Shown: positions 15,828 through 24,388 of the stretch, one piece after another | Position numbering within the stretch: position 1 is the stretch's first letter | Layout of the letters: each line of letters starts with the position of its first letter | Assembly: GCA_963751275.1 (NCBI GenBank) | Contig: CAVVTZ010000004.1 | Span: 1 to 28,110, forward strand | Source: an uncultured Gemmatimonadaceae bacterium | Lineage (GTDB): Bacteria > Gemmatimonadota > Gemmatimonadetes > Gemmatimonadales > Gemmatimonadaceae | Reading direction: 5' to 3' | Length of the DNA: 28,110 nucleotides | Made by a program: the position numbers and the translations under genes | Notes under the pieces: model-generated | Database searches by the model: none | The model's input: the letters and a program-made list of their open reading frames with translations, nothing else | What the model was told of the DNA's origin: nothing

Positions 15828-17798
15828 GTGACCCGTCGCCCCATCGCCGTCGCGTTCCTGCTCGTGATCCCCACCGCCGTGGCGGCCGCCCAGAACAGCG
15901 TGCTCAATCCGCCGTCGAAGGACACCGCGGTCCTTCGCCCGGTGGTCGTCACGGCCACGCGCGATTCCGTGACCCAGGTCGCGCCCACGGCCGCCACCAC
16001 CGTGATATCGGGCGAGCAGTTGCGCGCAGAGGGGATCATCAGCGTGGCACAGGCGCTGAGCGTCATCTCGAGCATGACCACGGTGCAGGCGGGATCCTTC
16101 GGCGCCACCACCTCGCTCTTCACGCGCGGCGGCCAGAGCAACTACACGCTGCTCATGATCGACGGATCCCCGGTGAACGATCCGGGCGGCTTCCTCGATC
16201 TCGCGAACCTCACCACCGACGACATCGACCGGATCGAGATCGTGCGCGGCCCCGGCAGCGTGCTCTACGGATCCAACGCGATCAGCGGCGTCATCCAGAT
16301 CTTCACGCGGCGGCGCGCGGGCGCCGATTTCGCGAACGTCGTCGCGAGCGGCGGCAGCTACGGCACGCGCGACTACGAGATCGGCGGCGGCTTCGGCAAG
16401 GAGGCGGCGGCGATCACGCTGGATGCGTCGCGCGCCAATACGAACGGCATCTACGCCTTCAACAACTCGGCGTCGAACGACGTCTACAGCGGCCTCATCC
16501 ACTTCGGCAGCGCGGGCAGCGCGCACCTCGATGTCTCGGGCCGCCAGATGCGGTCGGTCTACAACTTCCCCACGGATTTCACCGGCGCGCAGGTGGACAG
16601 CAGCCAGTGGACGAACAGCCGCCTCACCGTCGCGTCCGTGGATGGCGGCTTCTACATGGGGAAGAAGGTCGAGTTCCGCGTGCTCGCCGCCGGCACGGAG
16701 AACCAGAGCACGTCGCAGAATCTCCAGGACAACGCGGGCGACACGCTCGGGTTCTACTATGTGGATCCCAGCACCACCAAGCAGTGGAGCGTCGACGCGC
16801 GCCTCGCCATCCATGCGAACGCCTCCACCGCGATCACGCTCGGCGGCCAGTACGACGACCAGCAGATCAAGAGCTTCGACTCCAGCTTCTCGGCGGGCTT
16901 CACCGACACGTCGTCGTTCGCGCACTCGCGCACGAACACCGCCTACTACGCGAACGCCACGGGCGACATTGGGTCGAAGTTCACGTACGATGCGGGCATC
17001 CGGATCACCAACAGCGATCTCTTCGGCACCTTCACGAGCTACCGCGTCGGCGCCGGCTATGTGCTCACGCCCAAGACGCTCGTGCGCGGTTCCATCGGCA
17101 GCGCCTTCAACGAACCGTCGTTCCTCGAGCAGTACTCCACGGGCTTCACCACGGGCAATCCGGACCTCAAGCCCGAGACCGGCACCTCCTGGGAGATCGG
17201 CCTGCAGCAGTCGATCTCGAGCGGGAAGGGCGTGATCGGCGTGACGTACTTCTCGCAGCACTTCACCGACATGATCCAGTACGATCCCGGCGTGCCGCCC
17301 GGCGATCCGAACTTCGAGAACATCGCGAAGGCCGACGCCAGCGGCATCGAGGCGGAGCTGCGGCTCGCGGTCTCGCAGGCGTGGTTCCTCGACTTCGCCT
17401 ACACCTGGCTCGACACGAAGGTCGTGAGCGCGCTCTCGAGCGGCGATCCGGGCGCGACGCTCATCGCCGGCGACGCGCTGCTGCGCCGCCCGTCGAACGC
17501 CGGCAACGTGGGTCTCACGTACTACCTGGCGAAGAAGCTCACCTTCAACATGCAGGGCGTATACGTCGGCAGCCGCGCGGATGTGAACTACAGCACCGAC
17601 GAGCGCGTCACGCTGCCGTCGTACGTGCTCATGAACGCGTCGCTGATGCTCACGCTCAAGGCCGACAACGAAGGCCGCTTCGCCGCGGTCACCGCCCGCG
17701 CGACCAACCTCTTCAATCACGGCTACGAGCAGACGGTCGGCTTTGCCGCGCCCGGCCGCACGCTCATGGTCGGGATTCGCCTCGGAGTAGGATACTGA
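15828..17798 (+). CDS. btuB: TonB-dependent receptor, probably for vitamin B12 (BtuB-like)
   Basis: Signal peptide, TonB box VVVTATR, plug motif IDRIEIVRGPGSVLYGSNAISGVIQI, GNPDLKPE, NLFN...GRT and a C-terminal aromatic residue. It is in the B12-riboswitch operon. Confidence 0.9.
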   Translation: MTRRPIAVAFLLVIPTAVAAAQNSVLNPPSKDTAVLRPVVVTATRDSVTQVAPTAATTVISGEQLRAEGIISVAQALSVISSMTTVQAGSFGATTSLFTRGGQSNYTLLMIDGSPVNDPGGFLDLANLTTDDIDRIEIVRGPGSVLYGSNAISGVIQIFTRRRAGADFANVVASGGSYGTRDYEIGGGFGKEAAAITLDASRANTNGIYAFNNSASNDVYSGLIHFGSAGSAHLDVSGRQMRSVYNFPTDFTGAQVDSSQWTNSRLTVASVDGGFYMGKKVEFRVLAAGTENQSTSQNLQDNAGDTLGFYYVDPSTTKQWSVDARLAIHANASTAITLGGQYDDQQIKSFDSSFSAGFTDTSSFAHSRTNTAYYANATGDIGSKFTYDAGIRITNSDLFGTFTSYRVGAGYVLTPKTLVRGSIGSAFNEPSFLEQYSTGFTTGNPDLKPETGTSWEIGLQQSISSGKGVIGVTYFSQHFTDMIQYDPGVPPGDPNFENIAKADASGIEAELRLAVSQAWFLDFAYTWLDTKVVSALSSGDPGATLIAGDALLRRPSNAGNVGLTYYLAKKLTFNMQGVYVGSRADVNYSTDERVTLPSYVLMNASLMLTLKADNEGRFAAVTARATNLFNHGYEQTVGFAAPGRTLMVGIRLGVGY

Positions 17799-17807
17799 GA
17801 ACGGCTC

Positions 17808-18013
17808 AACGACTTTCAACGAATGGCAGCGCGAAAACCGGCGAATGCGGCGAATCGCTCCGAGTACGCGATGAATGCCGCGAGTGCGGGCAGGCGCTGA
17901 AATTGTTGTTAACAACAATTCCTCGGCTCGCAAACACTCTCGAGGCCATTCGCGCTCATGGAGCGATTCGCCGCATTCGCTCGTTTTCGCGCTGTCATTC
18001 GTTCAAAGTCGTT
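17808..18013. repeat. 206-bp gapless imperfect palindrome centred on 17910/17911 with perfect core AATTGTTGTTAACAACAATT
   Basis: Manual ungapped alignment of the left arm to the reverse complement of the right arm gives 50/54 in the outer part, 18/39 in the middle and 10/10 in the inner part. Confidence 0.95.
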
Positions 18014-18069
18014 AGGCAGTTGCCGTAAGTGCCCTGCGGACAGCGCGCTGAGGCCACTATCTTTCGCAG

Positions 18070-18834
18070 ATGCCCCTCGTCGAGACCGACGCGATCGTCT
18101 TGCACGCTTTCAATTATTCCGAGACGAGCCGCATTCTCCGGCTCGCCACGCGCGATGCCGGCGTGCAGTCCGTGCTCGCGCGCGGTGCCCGGCGCGCCAA
18201 GAGCCGCTTCGGCAGCGCGGTGGACCTCTTCGCGCAGGGGCACGCCGAACTGCATCTCCGTGAAGGGCGCGATCTCCAGACCCTGAGCGCCTTCGATGTC
18301 ACCACCGCGCGCGCCACGATCGCCGAGGACCTCGGCCGCTTCACCGGCGCCAGCGCCGTGGCCGAGATCGTGCTGCGCTTCGCGGCCGCCGACGAGTCGC
18401 ATGCCGCGCTCTTCGATGTCCTCAGCGCCGCGCTCGACCGCATTGCGCTCGCGCCGGCCGAGCAGGCGGGGGAAGCGGCGCTCGGCGGCGCCTGGAGCCT
18501 GCTCGCCGAGCTCGGCTTCGCGCCGCAGCTCGCCGAGTGCAGCGCGTGCCACACGCCGCTGGATCCCGCCGCCACGGTCGCCTTCCACCACGCCCTCGGC
18601 GGCGCACTCTGCGCCGCGTGCGCCGCGCGCCACCCCGGCGGACGCACGCTGCCCGCCGCTGATCGGGCGCGCATCGCCGCGTGGACGGAAGGCGCGAGCG
18701 TGGACGCGCTCACGCCGCGCGAGGCGCAGGCGCACCAGCGGCTGCTCCGCGAATTCCTCGAGTATCACCTCTCGGACAATCGCTCCTTGCGCGCCTTCGC
18801 CGCGTGGGAGCATGGTCACTGGGACGCGCTGTGA
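18070..18834 (+). CDS. recO: DNA repair protein RecO
   Basis: [28 protein letters not shown] and the Zn-finger CSAC...CAAC. Confidence 0.95.
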
Positions 18835-20670
18835 TCCTCGGCACCGCCGGCCACGTCGATCACGGCAAGACCGCGCTCGTGAAGGCGCTCACCGGCGTCG
18901 ACACCGACCGCCTCGCCGAGGAGAAGCGCCGCGGGATCACGATCGAGTTGGGCTTCGCGCCGCTCGTGATCGGCGATCTCACGCTGGGCGTCGTGGACGT
19001 GCCCGGCCACGAGGCTTTCGTGCGCAACATGCTCGCCGGCGCCACCGGTGTGGACCTCGCGCTGCTCGTCGTCGCCGCCGACGAGGGCGTGATGCCGCAG
19101 ACGCGCGAGCATTCTCGCGATCCTCTCGCTGCTCGGCATCCGTGGCGGCGTCATCGCGCTCACGAAGTGCGATCTCGGCGACGCCGACTGGCGCGCGCTC
19201 GTGGCCGAGGATGTGCGCGCGGCGGTGCAGGGAACTCCGCTCGCCGGCGCGCCCGTGATCGCCACCTCCGTCGTGAGCGGCGAGGGCCTCGATGCGCTGC
19301 GCACCGCGATCACCTCGGCAGCTTCGGCGCTGCCCGCGCGCGACCCCGCCGATCTCTTCCGCCTGCCGGTGGACCGCGCCTTCACGGTGAAGGGCACCGG
19401 CACGGTCGTCACCGGCACCGTCTGGAGCGGCGCAATTTCCCGCGAAGACACGGTGCGCGTGCTCCCGCTCGGCCGCGACGCCCGGGTGCGCGGCATCGAG
19501 ATGCACGGCCACGCCGCCGAGCGCGCCCTCCCCGGCTCACGCGCCGCGATCGCGCTCTCCGGCGTCGAGGTCTCCGACGTCTCGCGCGGCGTGACGCTCG
19601 TCGCCGGCGCCGGCTGGACGGCCGCGCGCGTGCTGCTCGCCGAGGTCGCGCTGCTCGAGAGCGCGCCGCGTGCGCTCGGCCCGCGCACCGCCGTGCGCTT
19701 CCATCTCGGCACGCAGGACCTGGGCGCGCGCGTCGTCTGCCCGGGGGGAAAACTCGCCTCGGGCGCCTCGGCGCAAGCGCGCATCGCGCTCGATCACCCG
19801 GTGGTCGCGCGCGCGGGGGACCGTTTCGTGCTGCGCGGCGGTTCGCCGCTCACCACCATCGGTGGCGGCATCGTGAACGACCCCGCGCCGCCGGGCCGCC
19901 GCGCGCGTCCATGGCCGGCGAGCGCCGTCACGCCAGCCGCGCGCCTCGAGCGCTCGCTCGAGAACGCCGGCGCCCGCGGCGTGCCGGTGAACGAACTCGC
20001 CCTGCGCACCGGCGCGACGCCCGCCGCCGCCGCGCAACTCGCCACGCAGCTCGGCGCCGCCGCGATCGAGATCTCCGGAACGCTCTACCCGGCGGCCGTT
20101 CTCGACGACCTCGATCGGCGTCTTCTCGCGCTCGTCGACGCGCACCAGGCGAAATTCCCGCTCGACAGCGGCGCGCAGCTCCAGTCGATCCGCGCCAAGC
20201 TCGCCGCCCCGGATGGCCTCGTGGACCACGCCGTGAACCGCCTCACCCTCGACGGCACCCTCGAACTCGACGCCGCCCTCATCCGCCGCACCGGCTACCG
20301 CCCCAAACTGGATGACGCGCAGTCGATGCGCCGCCAGGAGCTCCTCGCCGCACTACAGGCCGCCGGCCGCGAGCCACCCAGCGTCGCCGAGCTGGAAGCG
20401 AAGCTGGGGAAGGGCGTCGCCCCCCTCCTGCGCATGCTCGATCGCGAGGGCGCCGTGATCGCCGTGGAACCCGACCGCTACTACGCGAAGGAGGCGGTCG
20501 AGGCGCTCATTGGCCAGCTGCGCAGCAGCCTGGCGCCGAGCAAGGTTTACCCGCCCAGCGACCTTCGCACCCTCCTTGGGGTCTCAAGGAAGTACCTCAT
20601 CCCATTGCTTGAGTACCTCGACCGCACCGGAGTGACCCGACGGCACCCGGATGGTCGTCAGTTGGTATAG
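18831..20670 (+). CDS. selB: Selenocysteine-specific elongation factor SelB; +1 frameshift near 19112
   Basis: [49 protein letters not shown] and the C-terminal winged-helix motif [13 protein letters not shown]. Confidence 0.95.
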
Positions 20671-21784: not shown

Positions 21785-24388
21785 ATGTTGAACCCCGACA
21801 AGCTGACCGTCAAAGCCGGCGAGGCGATCAAAGAAGCGCTCAACCTCGCTCGCCGCGCCGGCAATCCGCTCGTCTACGACGGCCATCTCCTGAACGCCCT
21901 CCTCGGCCAGGACGAGGGGATCGTCGTCCCCCTGCTGCAGAAGATCGGCGTCAACGCCGCCGGCCTCCGCGCCCAGGTCGAGAAGGAGATCGCGCGCTAT
22001 CCCAAGCAGAGCGGCGGCTCCGAGCCGTCGCTCTCCCGCGAGCTCAACCAGGTGCTGGACAAGGCCGAGGAAGAGGCCAAGGCGCTGAAGGACGAGTACG
22101 TCAGCACCGAGCACTTCCTGCTGGCGCTGGCGACGGTCAAGAAAACGGAGAGCTACACCCTGCTCAATGCCGTGGGTGCGAACCGCGAGGCGCTGCTCGA
22201 AGCCTTCGAGCAGGTGCGCGGCGCTCACCGGGTGACGGACCAGAATCCCGAGAACCAGTACCAGGCGCTCCAGCGCTTCACGCGCGACCTCACCGAAGCG
22301 GCGCGCAAGGGCAAGCTCGACCCCGTGATCGGCCGCGACGAGGAGATCCGCCGCGTGATCCAGGTGCTCTCGCGCCGCACGAAGAACAATCCGGTGCTCA
22401 TCGGCGAGCCCGGCGTCGGCAAGACGGCCATCGTCGAGGGGCTCGCGCAGCGCATCGTGAACGGCGACGTGCCCGAGAGTCTCAAGAACAAGCGGCTGGT
22501 CTCGCTGGACCTCGGCGCGCTGATCGCGGGCGCGAAGTTCCGCGGCGAGTTCGAGGAGCGGCTCAAGGCGGTGCTCAAGGAGATCGTCGCCGGCGAAGGG
22601 CTGTTCATCGTCTTCATCGACGAGATGCACACGATCGTCGGCGCGGGCGCCGCCGAAGGCGCGATGGACGCCGGCAACATGCTGAAGCCGATGCTCGCGC
22701 GCGGCGAGCTGCGCGTGGTGGGCGCCACCACGCTCGACGAGTACCGCAAGCACGTGGAGAAGGACCCGGCGCTCGAGCGGCGCTTCCAGCCCGTGTACGT
22801 GGGCGAGCCGAGCGTGGAGGACACGATCGCGATCCTGCGCGGGCTCAAGGAGCGCTACGAGGTGCACCACGGCGTGCGCATCACCGATGACGCGATCGTC
22901 GCCGCGGCCACGCTCTCGAATCGCTACATCGGCGACCGCTTCCTGCCCGACAAGGCGATCGATCTCATTGACGAGGCCGCGTCGCGCCTGCGCATCGAGA
23001 TCGACTCGCTGCCGCAGGAGATCGACGACGTCGAGCGGCGCGTGATGCAGCTCGAGATCGAGCGCCAGGCGCTCGCCAAGGAGAAGGACAAGGCGGCCAA
23101 GGAGCGGCGCGCCGCCATCGAGAAGGAACTCGCCGAGCTCAAGGAGAAGTCCGCCGGCATGAAGGCGCAGTGGCAGGCCGAGAAGAAACGCTCGGCAAGG
23201 TCGGCGAACTCAAGGGGCAGATCGAAGACGGCGCGCATCGAAGTCGAGAAGGCGCAGCGTGCCGGCGACCTGCAGCAAAGCGGCCGAATTGAGCTACGGC
23301 ACGATCCCCAAGCTCGAGCAGGAGCTGAAGGATGCCGAGGCCGCGATCAAGTCGCGGCAGACGGGCGGCACGCAGTTCCTGAAGGAGGAAGTGGACGCCG
23401 AGGACATCGCCGAGATCGTGGCGAAGTGGACGGGCATCCCGGTCACGCGGATGATGGAGAGCGAGAAGGAGCGGCTCACGAAGCTCGAGAGCGTGCTCGC
23501 GAGCCGCGTCGTCGGGCAGGCCGAGGCCGTCGCGCGCCGTGGCGAACGCGGTGCGGCGCTCGCGCGCCGGGCTGCAGGATCCCAACCGGCCCATTGGATC
23601 GTTCATCTTCCTCGGCCCCACGGGCGTGGGGAAGACGGAGACGGCGCGCGCGCTCGCGGAGTTCCTGTTCGACGACGAGCAGGCGATGGTGCGCATCGAC
23701 ATGTCGGAGTACATGGAGAAGCACGCGGTGTCGCGGCTGATCGGCGCGCCGCCGGGCTACGTCGGCTACGACGAGGGCGGCCAGCTCACCGAGGCGGTGC
23801 GCCGTCGGCCGTACTCGGTGGTGCTGTTCGACGAGATCGAGAAGGCGCATGCCGGACGTGTTCAACATCCTGCTCCAGATCCTCGACGACGGGCGGCTCA
23901 CCGATTCGCAGGGGCGCACGGTGGATTTCCGGAACACGGTGATCATCATGACGTCCAACATCGGCGGGGCGTACATCCTCGACGCGGCGAACCGCGACTG
24001 GCCGGCGGTCGGAGAAGGAAGTCCTGGAGGCGCTGCGCCAGCACTTCAAGCCGGAGTTCCTCAATCGCGTGGACGACATCATCGTCTTCCGCCCGCTCGG
24101 CGTGGAGCAGATCGAGCACATCGTGGACCTGCAGCTCAAGCGCCTCGAGCGCACGCTGGCCGACCGGAAGCTCACGCTCGAGGTGACGCACGGAGGCCAA
24201 GCGCGCGCTCGCCGAGGAGGGCTACGATCCGGCGTATCGGCGCGCGTCCGCTGAAGCGCGCGATCCAGCGGATGATCCAGAATCCGCTCGCGCTCGCGGT
24301 GCTCGAAGGAAAATTCAAGGACGGCGACCGCGTGGTCGCGAAGCTCGACGGCAATAAGCAGATCGTGCTCGAGCGGGCGGGCCCGTGA
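21785..24388 (+). CDS. clpB: ATP-dependent chaperone ClpB; about 8 single-base indels in the 3' half
   Basis: [15 protein letters not shown], Walker A GEPGVGKT, coiled-coil middle domain, second Walker [20 protein letters not shown] and [10 protein letters not shown]. Indels are near 23187, 23230, 23277, 23535, 23851, 24011, 24190 and 24238. Confidence 0.95.

Follow-up and report, generated by a model that had tools for sequence, protein, structure and literature searches.

The element discussed here lies in a stretch of 28,110 nucleotides (the window) from the genome of an uncultured Gemmatimonadaceae bacterium, referred to as G000, in which the GC content is about 70%. Between the co-directional genes for a TonB-dependent receptor and for recO there is a 206-bp palindrome (17808..18013), which begins 1-9 bp past the stop codon of the receptor gene and ends about 50 bp 5' of recO (Table 1). 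Its symmetry about 17910|17911 is ungapped and tiered, with 50 of 54 positions paired in the outer tier, 18 of 39 in the middle tier and 10 of 10 in the inner tier, exactly as a preliminary description of the sequence had counted them, and a looser symmetry extends out to 17800/18021. The core, with 20% GC, is as AT-rich for this genome as that description had stated. Mismatches occupy 25 of the 103 arm positions, and five of these 25 are G.T or T.G. The palindrome has a gapless score of 55; the highest score reached was 11 among 100 shuffles and 16 in a 600-kb order-5 Markov null. The element folds strongly as RNA (-141 kcal/mol, z -14), and Rfam covariance models gave no match to it up to an E-value of 5.

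A 198-nt contig from a separate short-read run matches positions 17929-18126 with one difference and covers the right arm and recO, which shows that this arm is genuinely joined to recO; the core itself is crossed by no contig. The hexamer TATCTT, located in front of recO, is identical in four of the five congeneric genomes (G001-G005) and reads TAGTTT in the fifth. It is likely to be the -10 box of a leaderless recO promoter, in which case recO need not rely on read-through of the hairpin.

Table 1. Features of the palindrome and its flanks (positions in the window)
Feature	Position	Strand	Remarks
Upstream gene, TonB-dependent receptor (BtuB-like)	15828..17798	+	Best NCBIfam match is BtuB-type, below the curated cut-off
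Outer AAC-NGC module	17800..17807	.	Loose mirror at 18014-18021
Left outer arm, AAC start and degenerate ~9-bp repeats	17808..17855	+	GCGAA variant of the family CGGAT unit
CGCTCC box closing the left arm	17856..17861	+	Last repeat ends 55 bp from the dyad
Left spacer	17862..17900	.	Fixed length; weak 18-bp-periodic consensus; no selected structure
AT-rich dyad core	17901..17920	.	Family 16-mer at 17903-17918; central GTTAAC at 17908-17913
Right spacer	17921..17959	.	Resembles the left spacer no more than the spacers of other copies do (family-wide test)
CGCTCC box of the right arm	17960..17965	-	
Right outer arm	17966..18013	-	Inverted copy of the left arm
Outer GCAGTT/GCCG module, right side	18014..18025	.	
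TATCTT hexamer	18058..18063	+	6 nt 5' of the recO start; outside the element
Downstream gene recO	18070..18834	+	

A dispersed family with a common geometry

A scan of G000 yielded 271 non-overlapping gapless palindromes with a score of at least 25 and 333 with a score of at least 20, among which the focal palindrome ranks 69th. The long intergenic palindromes of this genome fall into about 15 families, several of which are built on short tandem repeats, and most hairpin families show an excess of AAC close to their ends. In G000 the focal family comprises 27 copies in head-to-head and 3 in inside-out arrangement, together with 2 lone arm matches, and 71 further head-to-head copies were found in four congeners, in fetched loci that represent part of the listed matches. 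These dispersed copies, about 30 in G000, point to a repeat family rather than a single conserved copy, so that a non-autonomous palindromic repeat, the last of the candidates in the preliminary description, was the right one. According to our own gene calls, the 27 copies of G000 lie between 17 co-directional, 7 convergent and 3 divergent gene pairs. These copies are located at a median of 28 bp from stop codons and 106 bp from start codons, and the family copies listed for G005, whose assembly is a single contig, are spread over all six bins of the chromosome.

Read from the outside inwards, each half of the element starts with an AAC end, which is followed by some three repeats of 9 bp (the autocorrelation peaks at lag 9), then by a CGCTCC box, a spacer of about 39 bp and a half core. 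These parts follow different rules. Across 97 copies, the two arms of one copy are more alike (identity 0.85) than arms from different copies of one genome (0.66), whereas the two spacers of a copy reach an identity of 0.55 against a background of 0.53; a separate test gave p 3e-10 for the arms and p 0.54 for the spacers. Structure inside the spacer was at z ~0 both as RNA and as DNA, the left and right halves of one copy fold no better than mixed halves, and no compensatory signal was detected between them. The 18 of 39 symmetric positions in the middle tier of the focal copy are ordinary in the family, which has a mean of 14.2 and in which 19 of 90 copies reach 18. The preliminary view that the middle is not a selected RNA stem is thus supported by the absence of any preference for own halves and by the free divergence of the spacers. 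Single arms folded alone gave a mean z of -2.2, with 29 of 60 below -2, relative to a null of mononucleotide shuffles only.

The core is conserved base by base. Its centre is GTNNAC in 90 of 98 copies, and GTTAAC in 74 of those 90. Deviations are mirrored on the other side in only 3 of 91 cases at dyad positions 1 and 4-8, positions 2-3 being outside this count as they are invariant through the selection of the copies. The 16-mer is matched in G000 at 28 places when up to 3 mismatches are allowed, all of them inside family copies. The distance to the dyad is 55-59 bp for 40 of the 41 exact anchor boxes, and the 48 copies with both anchors resolved have a mean of 56.1 bp (sd 1.2) and a modal total of 112 bp; 34 of 180 arms had no anchor in this measurement, and 32 had it at 62-67 bp, probably one repeat further out. 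Together, the tight spacing and the core conserved by its letters bear out the earlier idea of a dyad-symmetric DNA site in which the distance from a central box to outer boxes is kept. The same description had stressed the absence of gaps; this stands for the focal copy and fails as a trait of the family, in which the arms are exactly in register in only 33 of 90 copies. The core is a dyad site kept by sequence, the arms are kept by symmetry, and the spacer is free in sequence and fixed in length.

Arms alone are widespread, with matches in 55 of 140 genomes of the bacterial family, and many arm-bearing relatives show a one-sided T/G-rich tract in place of the full core. The full core is patchy, with 16 copies at one mismatch or fewer in G000 and one match each in 3 of the 300 genomes compared from elsewhere in the phylum. 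G239 (genus g88, which is placed in a different family of the order) has the whole architecture at 57 + 55 bp and two further tandem copies, and in G308, of the same genus, at least three copies have the core at a spacing of 53-58 bp. The core-to-arm spacing of 56 bp is maintained across two bacterial families. The core matches in G365 and G441 are devoid of arms. BLASTN with the focal element gave matches in only 3 of 40 relatives and hence underestimates the family. The GCGAA variant of the arm is found in 3 copies of G000, including the focal one, and in 1 copy of G005 by the same count. The inside-out copies of G000 (C11:397170-397409, C7:615678-615880 and C9:200411-200634), as well as one in G004 (L121), carry half cores at their outer ends, and the copy on C11 is also inside-out at the orthologous site of G004. 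A decayed copy, missed by the profile, was seen in G000 at C9 ~197900-198130, where the copies of G005 and G002 are intact.

Turnover and inversion at orthologous sites

The preliminary description had suggested looking for empty sites between btuB and recO in relatives. Such a site exists in G003, where the interval is 40 bp long and the hairpin is absent. A hairpin of another family occupies the same interval in G004, a hairpin of a third family does so in G002 and G005, and in G001 the gene upstream of recO differs. Another site shows the reverse situation, in which a copy of G001 has no counterpart in G000; the site is cleanly empty there, and the stop codon almost reaches the next start codon. 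For the family as a whole, 59 of the 71 congener copies could be mapped to G000 via both flanks. There, 34 face a family copy, 9 another scored palindrome and 15 no scored palindrome, and 1 is non-syntenic; these numbers refer to copies and not to independent sites, and several of the 15 show other repeats. The flanks of G000 and its congeners are about 86% alike, a distance at which most spacers have decayed to background identity while the core persists.

A comparison that included all hairpin families was carried out over 400 kb of synteny between G005 and G004. A scored hairpin is present in both genomes at 33 of 37 and 33 of 44 mapped sites, respectively, with the same family at 25 of the 33 shared sites and another family at 8. 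Of the remaining sites, 4 and 7 have a similar length without a scored hairpin, and 4 further sites are shorter and keep a remnant or, mostly, a small and different hairpin. As the 34 of 59 mapped family copies show, sites are mostly inherited, and families are swapped at some of them. At five or six adjacent sites, G005 (L240) carries one family and G004 (L260) another; this run hints at a regional conversion, the family labels being those assigned by BLAST.

The centre of the element can also change its orientation. In 56 pairs from the three closer genomes, the orientation was kept in 25, inverted in 10 and ambiguous in 21. The strong inversions concern five sites, a lower bound for the flipped orthologous sites. 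In the alignments of four of these, the flanking DNA is unchanged and the crossover falls within the arms. Host recombination by itself can invert a segment between inverted repeats, and no special enzyme is needed for this.

No young copies were found among the 97 copies, in which the best spacer identity between non-orthologous whole elements is 0.725. No signal of a target-site duplication was detected; the ends of the elements are fuzzy, so a short duplication could be missed. The birth of the element by fold-back duplication of one arm is not supported, the best identity between the spacers of a single copy being only 0.70 in the 97 copies. In G001, a small hairpin of 38 bp (L129:928-966) lies inside a core and has the central hexamer GTTAAC on both sides.

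GxxExxY nuclease genes next to and inside the arms

With regard to enzymes that could act on such repeats, five genomes (G000, G001, G002, G004 and G005; 63-89% complete, one of them a single contig) were searched. RAYT transposases (Y1 HUH, PF01797) were found in 0 of 5, in a search whose control was positive in 6 of 14, and protelomerase/ResT/TelK domains (PF16684) were likewise found in 0 of 5. Serine resolvases were not found in these genomes. G000 encodes XerC and XerD, as well as an integron integrase (C9:726701-728847, L056), which is followed by cassette-like DNA with GTTAGGC sites at the contig end; the single attC-like site seen there is very short.

A different type of protein is associated with the arms. 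In G000, the arms of other, matching hairpin families surround two genes of the GxxExxY type and several that encode four-helix bundles, and a third GxxExxY gene, of clade B (C12, locus L003), lies directly downstream of a copy of the focal family. Clade B was defined by hand, by a best E-value of ~2e-32 or lower and with the addition of the gene of G005, which is frameshifted as assembled. In the genus, a full copy lies within about 200 bp upstream of 6 of 6 clade-B genes (of 12 loci examined), at 2 independent sites, and the GxxExxY gene of metagenome locus L219 has a full copy directly at its 3' end. Family-wide, matches to the arm model are found within 450 bp of 18 of 29 clade-B loci, often as inverted arms that enclose the gene, as for the CGGAT arms of L181, L183 and L196. 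Another GxxExxY clade has arm matches at 0 of 29 loci, many of which carry a different arm type of their own. The left outer arm of the focal element is homologous to the arms around clade-B genes. This association with GxxExxY nuclease genes, which are located beyond the window, escaped the preliminary description. At loci L150-L179 and L180-L208, different GxxExxY clades are seen with distinct periodic arms, namely CACAGAG/CGCAGAG-like, GACAGGAT-like and CGGAT-like, and a gene-less hairpin is often right beside the GxxExxY gene.

Of 141 Gemmatimonadaceae genomes, 101 yielded GxxExxY (PDDEXK_3) proteins. A clade-B gene was detected in 19 of the 29 genomes with at least 5 arm matches and in 21 of the 112 others (p 3e-6), and the association persists among GxxExxY-positive genomes (19/27 arm-rich vs 21/74 others, p 2e-4), although related genomes are not independent and both p values therefore overstate the association. 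Ten of the 29 arm-rich genomes have no detected clade-B gene. The tallies include the unpublished genomes G012, G055 and G153 as rows, none of which is arm-rich. All of 40 GxxExxY proteins compared retain the D, E and K of the PD-(D/E)XK site, together with a QxxxY-type motif. A structural model of the protein (pLDDT 93.8) matches restriction-endonuclease folds, with AF1548 as the best hit (Z 8.1, rmsd 2.6, 83 aligned residues) and with Cas4, NucS, XisH and the resolvase Hjc (Z 5.8) among the others; these matches single out no function, and a sequence search of solved structures gave no match to the protein. PDDEXK_3 is catalogued as a domain of unknown function (PMC3424549), and in the one paper examined that mentions GxxExxY the name is a domain label only. 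A search of largely open-access literature gave no description of GxxExxY-linked repeats or of the present element.

The focal element is very probably a GxxExxY-type repeat. Because its arms are also found around a small nuclease gene in related soil bacteria, the palindrome is likely a member of a repeat-spreading system not described before, rather than a unique site of the chromosome. The explanation that we favour, and hold to be fairly probable as a whole, is that the focal element is a gene-less copy of a dispersed repeat whose arms enclose or adjoin clade-B GxxExxY genes, and that the nuclease would likely bind the arms and cut, upon which host repair would copy, replace or flip the hairpin. 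In the proposed mechanism, the arms with their 9-bp period would serve as binding arrays for the cognate nuclease, and the two arms could be brought together over the centre of about 112 bp by a U-turn or fold-back of the DNA. The core would represent two abutted half-sites, read as double-stranded DNA by a dimeric protein, with GTT|AAC as the candidate point of cutting or joining; the hairpin of G001 flanked by the hexamer and the inside-out copies that end in half cores point to this position. If a cut at the core or in the arms were mended with the opposite arm or a different hairpin as template, the homogenisation of arms, inversion and the swapping of families could result. Spread would be slow, and its targets would mostly be places shortly after a stop codon where a hairpin is already present. 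That the nuclease cuts at the core is the more tentative step, on which doubt slightly prevails. The core may have a reader other than the nuclease, since it is patchy while clade-B genes and arms are widespread.

A broader proposal is speculative, and we regard it as possible rather than probable. GxxExxY proteins would then be the enzymes of a new class of mobile DNA that works without transposase, integrase or HUH protein, each clade recognising arms of its own with a 9-bp period; in the present family the 112-bp loop would act as a ruler for a cut at GTT|AAC, and hairpins would home into others located behind stop codons, replace them and invert them. If the nuclease indeed drives the repeats, REPIN-like populations would be run by a class of enzymes unrelated to RAYTs.

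Related repeats and alternative explanations

Among the closest known systems is that of REPINs and RAYTs, which are extragenic, non-autonomous inverted doublets with a cognate enzyme (PMC3116915, 10.1101/2021.07.10.451892). Both types of repeat are dispersed extragenic inverted doublets, with a spacer that is less conserved than the arms and constrained in length; in both, a genome has several families, every one of which goes with a cognate low-copy enzyme gene that has repeat copies next to it, and both are mostly inherited vertically. Conversely, the present repeat has a PD-(D/E)XK nuclease as its candidate partner in place of the Y1/RAYT protein, which the five genomes searched did not yield, it measures about 210 bp rather than about 100 bp, its arms are 9-bp tandem arrays, its spacer is devoid of pairing, its central dyad is conserved in sequence, and a gene can lie inside the arms. 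The GTAG or CGTC tail of REPINs is not enriched at the repeat ends (43 of 180 arm ends vs 42% in random DNA). BIME-1 of E. coli is described as a unit of two inverted repeats with a long, well-conserved linker that often has an IHF site (PMC3333891). It resembles the focal repeat as a single-copy unit of two inverted repeats around a long linker bearing a site read by a protein; here, however, the linker is free except for a symmetric 16-bp core, which does not match the IHF consensus, and the linker flips. In TIRtrons, or TIRYTs, an enzyme gene lies between long terminal inverted repeats, and these repeats are also scattered as a family without the gene (PMC3733652). Clade-B GxxExxY genes present the same arrangement, although TIRYTs are tyrosine (HUH) transposases and GxxExxY is a protein with a restriction-endonuclease fold. 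Classical MITEs differ in having target-site duplications and near-identical copies. Taken together, the focal repeat works like a REPIN with its RAYT, has the layout of BIME-1 and resembles a TIRtron in its gene-in-arms form, without being a member of any of these groups. It is a real, previously undescribed variant of the non-autonomous palindromic repeat, with a striking, fixed geometry and a candidate nuclease partner that can be tested. The GxxExxY proteins thereby gain a concrete candidate substrate, matched to the clade, whose geometry is defined and which offers a possible cut site, and one experiment on binding and cleavage could address their function. The combination of symmetry-kept arms with a sequence-kept core and a 56-bp spacing across two families points to a protein-DNA architecture of which the literature search gave no description.

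The main rival explanation is a host role behind stop codons, in which the copies would now be host-serving 3' elements, either as a long RNA stem behind the stop that would protect or process the transcript, or as the target of a nucleoid or regulatory protein at the core, and the GxxExxY link would only reflect their origin. This reading is compatible with that of the nuclease, and as a replacement for it we consider it rather unlikely. The persistence of the sites, which outlive their occupants in the comparison of G005 with G004, favours such a role, as do the clustering behind stops, the survival of the core while spacers decay and the strong folding of the whole element as RNA. IHF binds the linkers of BIME-1 and offers an analogue for a protein bound to the core. 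Nevertheless, the IHF consensus is not enriched in the copies (1 of 90 matches it exactly and 11 of 90 with a single mismatch, vs 6% in shuffles), the core is absent from G000 outside the family, unlike the site of a regulon, the hairpin is missing from the btuB-recO interval of G003 and from another site in G000, and flipping and swapping speak against a fixed directional function.

Much less probable is that the hairpins are attC-like single-strand substrates of an integron integrase that recombines at GTT. The resemblance is that of long imperfect hairpins bounded by AAC...GTT; the segment 17800..17807 and the next three bases read like an attC R'' box, and the focal copy fits both end heptamers, RYYYAAC and GTTRRRY. 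Only 6 of 90 copies have both heptamers, the focal arms lack the extrahelical bases of attC, no cassette array is formed, and genes lie inside the arms instead of upstream of a site. Points in favour are the excess of AAC towards the ends of most of the hairpin families and the integrase encoded in G000 next to GTTAGGC sites. Integron integrases can also insert at short GWT sites of genomes (10.1101/2022.09.11.507474). The integrase, however, does not track the arms, as it is present in 20 of 29 arm-rich genomes and in 62 of 112 others (p 0.21), and in G005 none was found next to 55 arm matches in a single contig.

The preliminary description had also put forward a site for recombination, resolution or chromosome organisation. 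A dedicated chromosomal site of this kind, whether a protelomerase target, dif-like or similar, we now judge highly improbable. A loop-less dyad with an AT-rich core and a fixed geometry would suit such a site, and XerC and XerD are encoded, as they are in most bacteria. The copy number and the turnover of sites largely refute it, with about 30 sites in G000 rather than one per replicon, copies in all six bins of the G005 chromosome and a btuB-recO interval that is empty or holds other hairpins in congeners; as for a protelomerase target, no cognate TelA, TelN or ResT and no serine resolvase were found in the five genomes. Lastly, a fold-back or chimeric read artefact, raised in the same description, has practically no probability even though the assembly carries errors in the form of split genes, given that the arms differ at a quarter of their positions, that orthologous copies exist in independent assemblies and that the separate short-read contig contains the right arm and recO. 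The split genes are selB and clpB (18816-20670 and 21785-24388), each broken across several frames, probably through assembly errors.
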